This document shows positions 7,666 through 11,715 of a stretch of DNA of 64,000 nt, piece after piece. The stretch lies in assembly GCA_000002445.1 (NCBI GenBank), contig CP000068.1, forward strand, positions 736,001 to 800,000, written 5' to 3'. Within the stretch, counting starts at the first letter, position 1; the number at the start of each line of letters is the position of its first letter. The notes under the pieces were generated by a model that was not told the DNA's origin, searched no databases, and saw nothing but the letters and a program-made list of their open reading frames with translations. The DNA comes from Trypanosoma brucei (Eukaryota). The translations under genes and the position numbers were made by a program.

Positions 7666-9303
7666 ATGTTGGAGGGACTATGCGTGCGCAAGGCTGTGGA
7701 GCGTCTGCGGCATAAGACATCACAACAGCGGCAACTCGTTAATGAGATGCGGGAACGCGCTGATGCCCTTACTGCAAGTGGCCTCGCTGCTGCTCGTGCA
7801 AGGCGGGACCCGGCTGCGCAGAAGCTGCAGCACCAGGAACCTTGCTTTGTGGAGGTAGCAAGCAGCAGCAACCTGCAGCGCGGTTTCTCTCCTGATTGTA
7901 TGCTAAGTGGCGTCGCGATTGGTGTGTCGGATACGCTTGACGTGCGAGAGTTTTGCACGCGGTACGGGACTCAGTCACAGCTACTGCAGCAGATGCCACA
8001 AACAGAATTTCCTTTCGTCTCCTGGCTTCGCCGCCATGGTGCCCAGTTTGTCGGAAAGTTGGCGTGTCGGACACCGCTGACAATCGATGAGGCAAGTCTG
8101 ATTGTTTCTGACAACCCTGCTGCCGTGGCCGTTTCTCGGAATGCGTGTAACTACGCCATCAGTTCCTCGCTTATGGGGCCTGCAGCCCTGACATCCCCCT
8201 TACATCATCCTATTGCTTCATTTAAACCCACAGCGCAGTCGTTTGCGACATTTGCGGAGGGTTATCGACTCTCGGTTCCGTCCATGTCCTTCGGTATAAC
8301 CGCGGGGACTCTCGATGATATATTTTATTTGTGGGAAGTATTTACGTCAGCCATTCAACCAGCCTCATTCTTTGACACTCAGAGCGGTGATACAACCGAT
8401 GGGAATGACGGGAATGCCGTCACCGATAGCAATAAGGCCACCGGATCCACGAAACGGAGGCGCCCGGTGCCCTCCCCTCCAAATGACTCGAGCGCGAACC
8501 GTTATGGATATGCCAGTGTAGGAAGGTTCAAACGTTCGATTAGTGATGGGTATTCAAGTTTACGAGGGAGTCGGCCAACAAGTGGGGAGGAGGAATTGAT
8601 TGGACCACACATTGAACTTTCTGTCGGTTATCCCGCGGATTGGATTGATGCCCTTTGCCATGAGCGACTCTTGTCGGCTGACGAGTTCCGCCGCCGCATT
8701 CTTCGGCTTGTTTCCACACGCAATTCTATGCGAAAGAATGAAGTTTTGGAGGTCATTCCACTCACTATTGACATTGACCTGGAGGAGGTAGTGCAGGCAA
8801 CACAAACAATCGGCCTTTACGAGCTTTCACAAGCCTTCGATCGCCTCTTCTTCTGGAACACTCATTCGGACGGAAGAGATCCGTGCTTATCATCATCATC
8901 ATCCACATCCGGAAAAGCGGGCGTACTGGAGGAACTTCCGGAAGAACTAGTGTCTGCAATTTTTAATGGTAGAGCGCTGACCAGTCTTGACTACCATCGT
9001 GCACTGCGAACGCGTGACAGTGTTGTGAGGGCAACAGAGGAACAGTTTCGTGACGTCGACTTCATATTAACTCCGATGTTGTCAGAACCGTACGTAAACA
9101 GCAGCATGAGAAGCATCGCACTCCTGCTCCCGTTTTCACTCGGTGGGAATCCAATGGTTTCGTTGCAGTTAGAACCGGACTTTCCTGTCGTGCTTATTGG
9201 TGAGTTAGGTCGGGATACGGGATTGTTTGAGGATAGCACTACGTTTCTTCAGTTCGTGCAAGGAACATCACCAGGATGGTGGCGGAGAAAGTTTATGAGG
9301 TGA
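7666..9303 (+). CDS. Hypothetical protein, 545 aa.
   Basis: ATG-initiated 1.6-kb ORF on the PTU coding strand, with a polypyrimidine tract upstream (around 7440-7480). No confident family assignment. Confidence 0.5.
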   Translation: MLEGLCVRKAVERLRHKTSQQRQLVNEMRERADALTASGLAAARARRDPAAQKLQHQEPCFVEVASSSNLQRGFSPDCMLSGVAIGVSDTLDVREFCTRYGTQSQLLQQMPQTEFPFVSWLRRHGAQFVGKLACRTPLTIDEASLIVSDNPAAVAVSRNACNYAISSSLMGPAALTSPLHHPIASFKPTAQSFATFAEGYRLSVPSMSFGITAGTLDDIFYLWEVFTSAIQPASFFDTQSGDTTDGNDGNAVTDSNKATGSTKRRRPVPSPPNDSSANRYGYASVGRFKRSISDGYSSLRGSRPTSGEEELIGPHIELSVGYPADWIDALCHERLLSADEFRRRILRLVSTRNSMRKNEVLEVIPLTIDIDLEEVVQATQTIGLYELSQAFDRLFFWNTHSDGRDPCLSSSSSTSGKAGVLEELPEELVSAIFNGRALTSLDYHRALRTRDSVVRATEEQFRDVDFILTPMLSEPYVNSSMRSIALLLPFSLGGNPMVSLQLEPDFPVVLIGELGRDTGLFEDSTTFLQFVQGTSPGWWRRKFMR

Positions 9304-9619
9304 TTTATTGCGTATGATGTTTGATTTCGTCTGGTTGACGTTGTCGACATGATTAACTGTTTCCCCTCTCGGTTAATGCAACTTCGCGGTTGTCACTATT
9401 TTTAGTGCAACGTGCTCCATTCCCGGTTTTGTAAGCTGGGGCATTAATTGTGTGTTGTTGTTTTCACGGCGTGACACTGAAATTTCCTCATTTGTTCTCT
9501 TTATTGATGTTTAGGCTCCACTTAGCTTCACCGAAATGACCTCCGCTCCTTTTTCCTCCCTTTGAACGGCTGCCTACCTCAGCATATACGATGCTTTTTG
9601 CTGCAGCTAACAGTTTGAT

Positions 9620-9703
9620 GTGATGAATTTTAAGCTTAGGACACCTTTGGACGCAGGGACCCTGCGATTGAAAACAGTGAAACTTGATCGATTCGTACAC
9701 TGA
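9620..9703 (+). ncRNA. Candidate C/D box snoRNA, copy 1 of an exact 84-nt tandem duplicate.
   Basis: The unit starts with GUGAUGA (C box) at 9620-9626 and ends with CUGA (D box) at 9700-9703. It also has an internal CUGCGA and a UUGAUCGA (C'-like). It is 84 nt long and identical to 9813-9896. It lies in an intergenic region, which is where trypanosomatid snoRNA clusters sit. Confidence 0.5.
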
Positions 9704-9812
9704 CTAACCTTTCCTTTCTCTTATTTTTTTTGTCCCTTCTGTACCTGAAGCGTTGCGGTGGCACCGGTTCTTGCCTCAAGTGCCGCGTGGCACAACATGT
9801 TGTCGACACCCC

Positions 9813-9896
9813 GTGATGAATTTTAAGCTTAGGACACCTTTGGACGCAGGGACCCTGCGATTGAAAACAGTGAAACTTGATCGATTCGTACACTGA
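9813..9896 (+). ncRNA. Candidate C/D box snoRNA, copy 2, 100% identical to 9620-9703.
   Basis: Same 84-nt sequence bounded by GUGAUGA (9813-9819) and CUGA (9893-9896). The flanks diverge immediately outside the boxes. The period is 193 bp. Confidence 0.5.
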
Positions 9897-10212
9897 TTTC
9901 CATTTGTATTTTTTCCCATTCTACCCAAGTTCTTTCTCCTCCCACGAAAATGTGTCAAATCACCTACTCCTCCATTTTCCCTGTTTGTGTAGCTCTTTGC
10001 AGGCTGTCTATCGTATTTTCCTATTTGTTTGCATGGGTGCCTGTTTTCTTGAAAATGGCGCTAGACATATTTTTTCCTTCTAACCCTGCGATCACCTCTT
10101 GCGTTCAATATATATATTTTTATATATATCTTGTCTAAATGACATGAAAATAAAACTACTAGGAGGTTACAGTTCACTAGCACAACGCTGTTAAGGACCT
10201 CATTATTCAGGT

Positions 10213-11715
10213 ATGGAAAGAGGGGGAAAAATTGCGGCTATATTTGTCGGTCATTTCGTGTCGCGCCGTCATAAGGTTTTTTTATTTCTATTTTCCCTCT
10301 TATTTTTCTTCACGTCCGTTATGTTGTTGTCCAGTTGCTTCCTTCTTAGCACTCCCAGCTTTTTTTCTACTGGGACTTCGGAGGGAAGTTCCATATCGCG
10401 GGGAATTGTGTCGTTTTCCTCAGGCGAGCTTCCGTCTTCCAATGTTGCAGCGGATACTGCTACCATTTTTGTTTCACTTGCTTCATTTCGTGATAGCGAG
10501 TGCGTGACAACGCTGGACCGTCTTTTCAGTGCGGCAAAAAATCCACACCGCGTGTTTGTTGGTATCAGCGAGGAGCGATTTGGGAGTGAAAGCGGCTGTA
10601 CCAACTCTCCTACACTTTTAGGGTTCGTTGGAAGTCAGCGTGATTTTAATATTCGTTGGCGTGACGTTGTGCCCCGTGCATTTGATGAGGCGACATCAGA
10701 TGAGTTCCGACCACCTCCGACAACTCCGCTACTACACGCAAGACGTGAGAACGACGTTCTCACATGTTTCCTCAAACCCAAAATTTCGCGACCGAGTCCG
10801 TTACCGCAAGGCAAAGAGCTTTTGCGCAACTGTCAGGTCGTCACACGTGTCGGTGATCCGGATGATGCACGGGGCCCCACCTACGCACGGTACATCACTA
10901 GCCTTTTTTACGTAGATCAGGATTATTATATGGTCATTGACAGTCACATCAGAGCGCTTTTGGAGTGGGACGAGAAGATGATTAAACACGCTCGGCTTAT
11001 GCCAACTCGGGGAGTTTTGTCGCATTACCCTAACGGCTACACTCCGCAGAATCCAGACAAGGAAGTTAATTACACTCATGTGATGGCCATGTGCAAGGCT
11101 GTCATTCCTCCCACCAACATCCCAAAGCTTGGGGCTCGATGGATTTTGAAAAGACAGCGTCCACTTCTTCAATCACTTGTGGCCGCAGGCTATATCTTTG
11201 GTGATGCTCAGTTTGTGAAGGATGTACCATTTGACCCCTATCTCCCCTACTTATTTGAGGGGGAGGAAATGCTGTACACTGCACGACTCTGGACAAATGG
11301 GTGGGACAGCTACTGCCCGGGAGATTCATTTGTCTTCCACAACTATGAACGAGCGTCCGCGCCAAGGTTTTGGTCCGCAATATACAAGAGCAACCAGAGC
11401 GAAAGCCGGAAGCGGCAGGAAAAAATTGGGGTTCTTCGCGCACTTTACTTAATGGAAAGGAAGGAGCTGAACACAACAGTACCGCTTGTTTCGCGTGACG
11501 TAGCGCAGATCGTGTGTCCCGCCATCAGTATCGAGGAGGGCCGCTTTGGCATGGGAACCGTAAGGCCACTTGACGCTTTCTGGGAATTCGCTGAGCTTAC
11601 CGATGCGTTCTTGAAGGAGAAGGACGACGAAGGGCGGTGGATGGGTGGTGAGGGGTTGTGTCACCAGTTGGAGGCGCTTAGTGCCTCCATCAAACATATG
11701 GCTTCTGAAGATTAG
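10213..11715 (+). CDS. Type II membrane glycosyltransferase, GT60-like (Pfam 'GlcNAc' PF11397-like).
   Basis: N-terminal signal-anchor (VFLFLFSLLFFFTSVMLLSSCFLL). The start of the catalytic domain, 'IFVSLASFRDSEC...TLDRLF..AKNPHRVFVGISEE', resembles the GT60/GlcNAc-transferase family N-terminus. An acidic motif 'DQDYYMVIDSH' is also present. Family recalled from memory, not searched. Confidence 0.5.
   Translation: MERGGKIAAIFVGHFVSRRHKVFLFLFSLLFFFTSVMLLSSCFLLSTPSFFSTGTSEGSSISRGIVSFSSGELPSSNVAADTATIFVSLASFRDSECVTTLDRLFSAAKNPHRVFVGISEERFGSESGCTNSPTLLGFVGSQRDFNIRWRDVVPRAFDEATSDEFRPPPTTPLLHARRENDVLTCFLKPKISRPSPLPQGKELLRNCQVVTRVGDPDDARGPTYARYITSLFYVDQDYYMVIDSHIRALLEWDEKMIKHARLMPTRGVLSHYPNGYTPQNPDKEVNYTHVMAMCKAVIPPTNIPKLGARWILKRQRPLLQSLVAAGYIFGDAQFVKDVPFDPYLPYLFEGEEMLYTARLWTNGWDSYCPGDSFVFHNYERASAPRFWSAIYKSNQSESRKRQEKIGVLRALYLMERKELNTTVPLVSRDVAQIVCPAISIEEGRFGMGTVRPLDAFWEFAELTDAFLKEKDDEGRWMGGEGLCHQLEALSASIKHMASED

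Follow-up and report, generated by a model that had tools for sequence, protein, structure and literature searches.

A tandem pair of identical double-guide box C/D snoRNA genes in Trypanosoma brucei, probably TB5Cs1C1

INTRODUCTION

The vertebrate box C/D snoRNA SNORD58 (U58) is intronic, and human SNORD58A directs the methylation 28S G4198m. This position is given in the old numbering; we take it to be Gm4228 in the newer one. The human doublet Um4227/Gm4228 is the equivalent of Um2651/Gm2652 in Arabidopsis, and a yeast counterpart is not listed. In Arabidopsis, AtsnoR10 (At1gCDbox5.1 / At5gCDbox5.2) guides 25S Um2651, the U of the same doublet, and a snoRNA for its neighbour Gm2652 was not found; in T. 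brucei, by contrast, a single snoRNA is credited with both sites. Table 2 of a T. brucei RiboMeth-seq study lists LSUb_1093 (U) and LSUb_1094 (G), together with LSUb_1175 (C), under TB5Cs1C1; several other snoRNAs in the same table are likewise assigned adjacent sites (PMC9283944). The name TB5Cs1C1, from the catalogue of the Michaeli laboratory, denotes a C/D RNA of cluster 1 on chromosome 5.

Here we analyze a 64-kb stretch of T. brucei DNA (the window), for which a preliminary description had proposed a tandem pair of C/D snoRNA genes lying, as is usual in trypanosomatids, in a polycistronic unit. Rfam, synteny, the boxes and guides, and rRNA complementarity agree with that proposal. We put the probability at roughly 0.93 that the 84-nt unit is a double-guide box C/D snoRNA, TB5Cs1C1, which would methylate LSU-beta Um1093/Gm1094 and Cm1175. 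The feature is real and already known, a catalogued gene with an ordinary function.

RESULTS

Two identical copies in one intergenic region

The unit occupies 9620-9703 and again 9813-9896 on the + strand, with 193 nt between the starts of the copies. Direct reading of the sequence, a repeat finder and a pattern search agree on 84 identical positions out of 84, as the preliminary description had claimed. Wide dispersal of the unit would have marked it as a generic repeat; the pattern search, with 3 mismatches allowed, finds only these 2 copies in the 64-kb window. No match appears in any of 100 shuffled versions of the window, and a repeat scan of the whole window returns only low-complexity tracts besides the 84-mer.

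The identity begins with the G of GUGAUGA and ends with the A of CUGA. When the two upstream flanks are aligned locally with each other, and likewise the two downstream flanks, the scores are no higher than those of shuffled sequences (fraction of shuffles at or above the real score, 0.20-0.75). Thus, the flanks of the two copies are truly unrelated, homology between them was rejected, and the limits that had been drawn at the two boxes hold. In an independent Trypanozoon assembly (L128, GCA_001457755.2), from a very close relative, the layout is again one of two copies, with 0 mismatches across the 909-nt intergenic region, and this rules out an assembly artefact.

The pair is located in a 909-nt intergenic gap, bordered on one side by an amidase-like gene (stop at 9303) and on the other by a GlcNAc-transferase gene (start at 10213). 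The downstream ORF (10213-11715) contains a GlcNAc-transferase domain and is 100% identical to a protein of T. brucei brucei TREU927. The upstream 545-aa ORF (7666-9303) matches Amidase below threshold only (24.1 bits; cutoff, 27). The first 25 kb of the window contain 11 ORFs of at least 150 aa; eight of these, including every ORF of more than 300 aa, are on the + strand, and the other three, on the minus strand, are all nested in + strand ORFs. Because the large neighbouring ORFs all lie on the + strand, the snoRNA pair is sense to the polycistronic unit. The contig that bears it is, we assume, T. brucei chromosome 5.

Two minor observations concern the layout. The pair sits exactly in the center of the intergenic region, where 316 nt separate the upstream stop from copy 1 (9304-9619) and another 316 nt separate copy 2 from the downstream ATG (9897-10212); this is probably a coincidence. 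Downstream of each copy comes a pyrimidine-rich tract that ends in AG (9704-9750 and 9897-9950) and resembles trans-splicing acceptor signals; the two tracts cannot be aligned with each other.

Anatomy of the 84-nt unit

The features of the locus are as follows, with coordinates in the window and those of copy 2 in brackets.

9620..9703, + strand: snoRNA gene copy 1, probable TB5Cs1C1 (model R1, 104.4 bits; SNORD58, 28.3 bits)
9813..9896, + strand: snoRNA gene copy 2, identical to copy 1 (model R1; SNORD58, 23.4 bits)
9620..9626 (9813-9819), + strand: C box GUGAUGA; UGAUGA is invariant in all orthologues
9635..9646 (9828-9839), + strand: D' antisense element CUUAGGACACCU; invariant in the orthologues and equal to the SNORD58 consensus
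9647..9651 (9840-9844), + strand: D' box region UUGGA; invariant in the orthologues and present in the SNORD58 consensus
9653..9665 (9846-9858), + strand: internal D'-C' hairpin GCAGG-GAC-CCUGC; shows covariation
9668..9674 (9861-9867), + strand: C' box UUGAAAA; UGAAAA is invariant and aligns to UGAAAA of the SNORD58 consensus
9688..9698 (9881-9891), + strand: D antisense element UCGAUUCGUAC; conserved, 11-nt rRNA complement
9700..9703 (9893-9896), + strand: D box CUGA; invariant across four species
9704..9812, + strand: 109-nt spacer, a pyrimidine tract and then a GC-rich inverted repeat; not conserved

Each copy thus has the RUGAUGA motif near its 5' end and the CUGA motif near its 3' end that are expected of a box C/D snoRNA. 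It also has an internal C'/D' pair, in which UUGGA and UGAAAA are invariant, though degenerate, and are joined by a covarying 5-bp hairpin. The D' box, UUGG or UGGA, directly follows the first guide; it is degenerate and its register is ambiguous, since UUGGA accommodates two overlapping readings, between which the 5th-nucleotide rule would assign the register. The C' box is (A/U)UGAAAA, which reads UUGAAAA in T. brucei and AUGAAAA in T. vivax, T. rangeli and T. grayi.

The preliminary description had located three shorter motifs correctly (CUGCGA, UUGAUCGA and, in the spacer, GTGCC...GGCAC); it misread the first two, and its reading of the third is unsupported. CUGCGA, taken there for a D'-like box, is the 3' arm of the internal hairpin and is replaced in other species by CUGCA or CCGCA, together with a compensatory change of the 5' arm. 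Similarly, UUGAUCGA, taken for a C'-like box, is the 5' part of the conserved D guide AUCGAUUCGUAC.

A terminal 5'/3' stem is absent from both copies: the flanks have no conserved complementarity, and they differ between the copies. Such a stem is often absent from box C/D snoRNAs and is not obligatory.

Conservation across Trypanosoma

For comparison, we use the DNA around the orthologous GlcNAc-transferase genes of other trypanosomatids. The synteny of the amidase-like and GlcNAc-transferase genes is kept in T. vivax, T. rangeli, T. theileri and T. grayi; in all four, the 545-aa amidase-like ORF keeps its position and has the same faint Amidase match. The syntenic intergenic region contains a snoRNA orthologue in T. 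vivax (1 copy) and in T. grayi (1 copy), and in T. rangeli there are two clean copies at the syntenic site plus a noisy middle copy beside a run of N. The T. rangeli repeat (L004 3380-3705) amounts to about three 122-nt units with identical flanks, leaving a spacer of about 40 nt. The copy number is uncertain in that assembly, where the N run breaks the middle copy. When the 909-nt T. brucei intergenic region is compared by BLAST with the intergenic regions of the other species, the snoRNA alone aligns.

In an alignment of the four species (orthologue lengths 84, 84, 82 and 81 nt), 56 of the 84 columns do not vary, namely those of the boxes and of both guides. The blocks free of variation are UGAUGA, AAGCUUAGGACACCUUUGGACGC, UGAAAA, AU(C/U)GAUUCGUAC and CUGA; the single C/U difference in the D antisense element is found in T. 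rangeli only. The 28 variable columns are spread over two linkers, one following the C box and one following UGAAAA, the hairpin and the single nucleotide that precedes CUGA. This last nucleotide (9699), directly 5' of the D box, is A, A, U and C among the four species, the variability expected of an unpaired nucleotide. In the hairpin, 95% of the cells are paired, versus 25-67% when the 3' partner is slid, and two pairs are altered on both sides (A-U to G-C; C-G, G-C and U-G), a covariation that with n = 4 sequences is suggestive and not statistically strong.

A covariance model (R1) built from the sequences of the four species scores all copies at 96-106 bits and finds no further match in the window, nor any in the loci of T. 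cruzi and L. major. The GlcNAc-transferase loci of T. cruzi, T. theileri and L. major are without a copy, so that the gene has been moved or lost from this site. In T. cruzi, the orthologous GlcNAc-transferase gene has no snoRNA copy within 4 kb, and upstream of it the place of the amidase-like neighbour is taken by a gene of the trans-sialidase family with BNR_3/TS_C domains (L003 694-2913). The syntenic intergenic region of T. theileri contains no snoRNA; a segment of it (L005 3672-3710) includes GAAGCTTTATCGATTTGTATACT, a sequence similar to the gene's 3' third (weak partial match to model R1, 10.5 bits, E = 2.2) that may be a decayed remnant or a chance match.

Relationship to SNORD58

At its gathering thresholds, Rfam returns no match anywhere in the window. 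In a permissive scan, SNORD58 (RF00151) is the sole snoRNA match on both copies (28.3 bits for copy 1, 23.4 bits for copy 2); neither score reaches the SNORD58 gathering threshold of 42 bits. Every orthologue also matches SNORD58, at 24.7-27.4 bits, again always below the threshold. The C box, the 17-nt CUUAGGACACCUUUGGA covering the guide and the D' region (17/17), and the downstream C'-like UGAAAA are identical to the SNORD58 consensus. The two RNAs share the antisense element and also the rRNA nucleotide that it targets, the target G in AGGUGUCC corresponding to LSUb_1094; the site predicted for guide 1 is the equivalent of human 28S Um4227/Gm4228, the SNORD58 site. With an identical 5' module (C box, guide, D' region and C' box) in the trypanosomes and in the vertebrate-derived SNORD58 consensus, the guide for the Um/Gm doublet must be very old.

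The rest of the molecule differs. The trypanosome RNA is 84 nt long, against 65 positions in the SNORD58 model; a covarying hairpin is inserted between D' and C', and a second guide, for Cm1175, precedes box D where the SNORD58 consensus reads uaAAuauaUU. Unlike SNORD58, it is without a terminal stem, and its gene is tandem and intergenic, within a polycistron, rather than intronic. For specialists, the interest lies in this ancient guide for a Um/Gm doublet next to the P loop, to which the trypanosome RNA adds a hairpin and a second guide.

Predicted targets in LSU rRNA

The T. brucei rRNA genes lie outside the window; as a stand-in for T. brucei rRNA, metagenome contigs were scanned with a pattern consisting of the guide-1 complement, a gap of 60-80 nt and the guide-2 core complement. 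The predicted D target in T. brucei LSU-beta is GUACGAAUCG. The strict pattern, with the full predicted D target GTACGAATCGAT (ending in CGAT), had 0 matches in the metagenomes; kinetoplastid-like rRNAs read CGAG there, and thus the D duplex may be only 11 bp. The relaxed pattern, AGGTGTCCTAAG-N(60-80)-GTACGAAT, matched at least 120 metagenome contigs, and among the matches listed the gap is 69 nt in 108 and 70 nt in 11. All six contigs that were checked have the match inside Rfam LSU_rRNA_eukarya.

Three of the contigs (L072, L075 and L115) are near-complete rDNA units from environmental metagenomes, with an SSU of about 2.18 kb and a 5.8S of about 169 nt. They look like kinetoplastid rDNA and carry what we take to be kinetoplastid SSU primer sequences. 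All three have the 70-nt gap, read GTACGAATCGA and contain perfect complements of 12 nt to guide 1 and 11 nt to guide 2. In these kinetoplastid-like rDNAs, guide 1 pairs with LSU rRNA AGGUGUCCUAAG, selecting an adjacent U and G, and guide 2 pairs with GUACGAAUCGA, selecting a C that comes 81 nt after the G. The selection follows from the boxes: position 76 of the snoRNA is the 5th nucleotide upstream of box D, position 24 the 5th upstream of UGGA and position 23 the 5th upstream of UUGG, and opposite positions 24, 23 and 76 the three rDNAs carry U, G and C, the U 1 nt from the G and the G 81 nt from the C. Judged on these kinetoplastid-like metagenome rDNAs, which stand in for T. brucei rRNA, the snoRNA has antisense elements of at least 10 nt that end next to D or D' and put the target opposite the 5th position, and the check for rRNA complementarity next to D and D' that had been suggested gives 12-nt and 11-nt perfect complements in LSU rRNA.

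The predicted sites correspond to the published ones, in which TB5Cs1C1 guides Nm at LSU-beta U1093, G1094 and C1175 (PMC9283944). In procyclic cells, methylation falls from 0.74 in the control to 0.30 with NOP1 silenced at LSUb_1093 (U; p 0.0000 as printed) and from 0.61 to 0.38 at LSUb_1094 (G; p 0.0028), and is 0.42 and 0.31 at LSUb_1175 (C), where there is no significant drop (p = 0.30) (PMC9283944).

A 10-nt identity in the same sense, AGTGAAACTT, between the snoRNA and kinetoplastid-like SSU rRNA was judged to be chance, and a literature search with the guide and target oligonucleotides returned unrelated primer matches only.

DISCUSSION

Identity and proposed mechanism

The nucleotide identities U, G and C, the spacings of 1 and 81 nt and a name that points to chromosome 5 lead us to identify the locus with TB5Cs1C1. 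On this three-site fingerprint and the chromosome-5 name, the locus is very probably the published gene, with which it agrees in species, presumed chromosome, RNA class and target set. The snoRNA repertoire and the rRNA methylation map of T. brucei have been published, and the locus corresponds to a single catalogued entry; as a discovery it is of little importance. It is usable as a positive control, a C/D snoRNA pair that was recognized correctly from sequence alone.

The pair would be transcribed in the + strand polycistronic unit and then cut from the precursor, and the RNA would assemble with SNU13, NOP56, NOP58 and NOP1. The 5-bp hairpin would place D' beside the degenerate C' box. Guide 1 would then pair with AGGUGUCCUAAG, in domain V just 3' of the P loop, and set the methyltransferase on Um1093/Gm1094, and guide 2 would pair with GUACGAAUCGA, 81 nt downstream, and direct Cm1175 with one unpaired nucleotide left before the D box. 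For each box, the nucleotide opposite the 5th upstream position would be the one methylated; a single guide may reach both adjacent nucleotides, Um1093 and Gm1094, through the two D' registers in UUGGA.

Alternative explanations

Two identical copies lie near each other and none of the sequences reaches the Rfam gathering score, as might be expected of a plain genomic duplication or a dispersed repeat with no RNA product. That reading is effectively refuted: there are 2 copies only in 64 kb, and their unrelated flanks are not what a segmental duplication of DNA gives. Moreover, the unit is present at the syntenic site in three other species, where boxes and guides are invariant and linkers vary, and its rRNA complementarity falls at published methylated positions. 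There is next to no chance that a short protein accounts for the conservation. A 27-aa + strand ORF (9620-9703) and minus-strand ORFs beginning MYESIKFHC... do exist, but the 1-2-nt indels among orthologues of 84, 84, 82 and 81 nt would break any reading frame, and the conserved blocks match RNA boxes and antisense elements rather than codon periodicity. The minus-strand ORFs run on into the unrelated flanks and so differ between the copies; they are by-products of the repeat, and on this point, as in its view that no ORF explains the conservation, the preliminary description was right. It is also very improbable that the RNA is a C/D snoRNA working mainly in another role, such as pre-rRNA processing, chaperoning or guiding the modification of snRNAs or mRNAs. 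Several abundant T. brucei C/D snoRNAs work in rRNA processing, according to one study (PMC6411936), and Cm1175 combines a low level (0.42) with a NOP1 dependence that is not significant (PMC9283944). Both guides, however, lie at the canonical distance from D' and D, the three mapped Nm sites of TB5Cs1C1 are matched (PMC9283944), and the sequence, compared here with rRNA, gave no pointer to another target.

A further suggestion, flagged as speculative when it was made, was that the 109-nt spacer encodes a second small RNA of H/ACA-like type, making the locus a mixed C/D and H/ACA cluster. T. brucei clusters do combine C/D and H/ACA-like genes (PMC3273796), and the spacer has a GC-rich inverted repeat as well as an ACA at 9806-9808, 4 nt before copy 2. 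We nevertheless regard a spacer RNA as highly unlikely. The combination that marks H/ACA-like RNAs (a single conserved hairpin with a pseudouridylation pocket, and an AGA/ACA box placed 3 nt before the 3' end) was not found in the spacer, which is without an AGA box; its fold energy lies within the distribution of shuffles (z -1.12 and -0.54), it has no Rfam match even at E <= 10, and nothing similar occurs in the regions flanking the orthologues. In T. rangeli the C/D gene repeats with a spacer of just about 40 nt. A name TB5Cs1H was not found in the literature searched, where TB5Cs1 occurs in one paper only and its three mentions are all of TB5Cs1C1 (PMC9283944).

Origin of the second copy

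In its tandem reiteration within a polycistronic unit, the double-guide C/D snoRNA pair resembles typical trypanosomatid snoRNA clusters. Those clusters repeat the whole unit, as in the 122-nt repeat of T. rangeli with its flanks, whereas in T. brucei the shared sequence runs exactly from C box to D box and no further. At every one of the 28 positions that differ among species the two T. brucei copies agree, yet their flanks are unrelated. This is odd, since a simple tandem duplication of DNA, as in T. rangeli, would have copied the flanks, and after an old duplication the free positions should have drifted apart. Most probably, the duplication is old and short-tract gene conversion, acting in the sole homologous segment, has kept the coding segment uniform.

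Alternatively, the second copy could have arisen by RNA-templated duplication, whether retroposition-like or through RNA-templated repair, rather than by an ordinary tandem duplication of DNA. We consider this unlikely, and we know of no description of such an event for trypanosome snoRNA genes. No poly(A) tract follows copy 1 or copy 2. A 5-nt direct repeat, CTAAC, is found 8 nt upstream of copy 1 and again immediately downstream of it (9606-9619 and 9704-9708); as the sole candidate for a target-site duplication, enclosing copy 1 plus 8 upstream nucleotides, it was rejected as too short. Of modest interest to specialists, the restriction of the identity to the stretch from box to box hints at homogenization confined to the coding segment.
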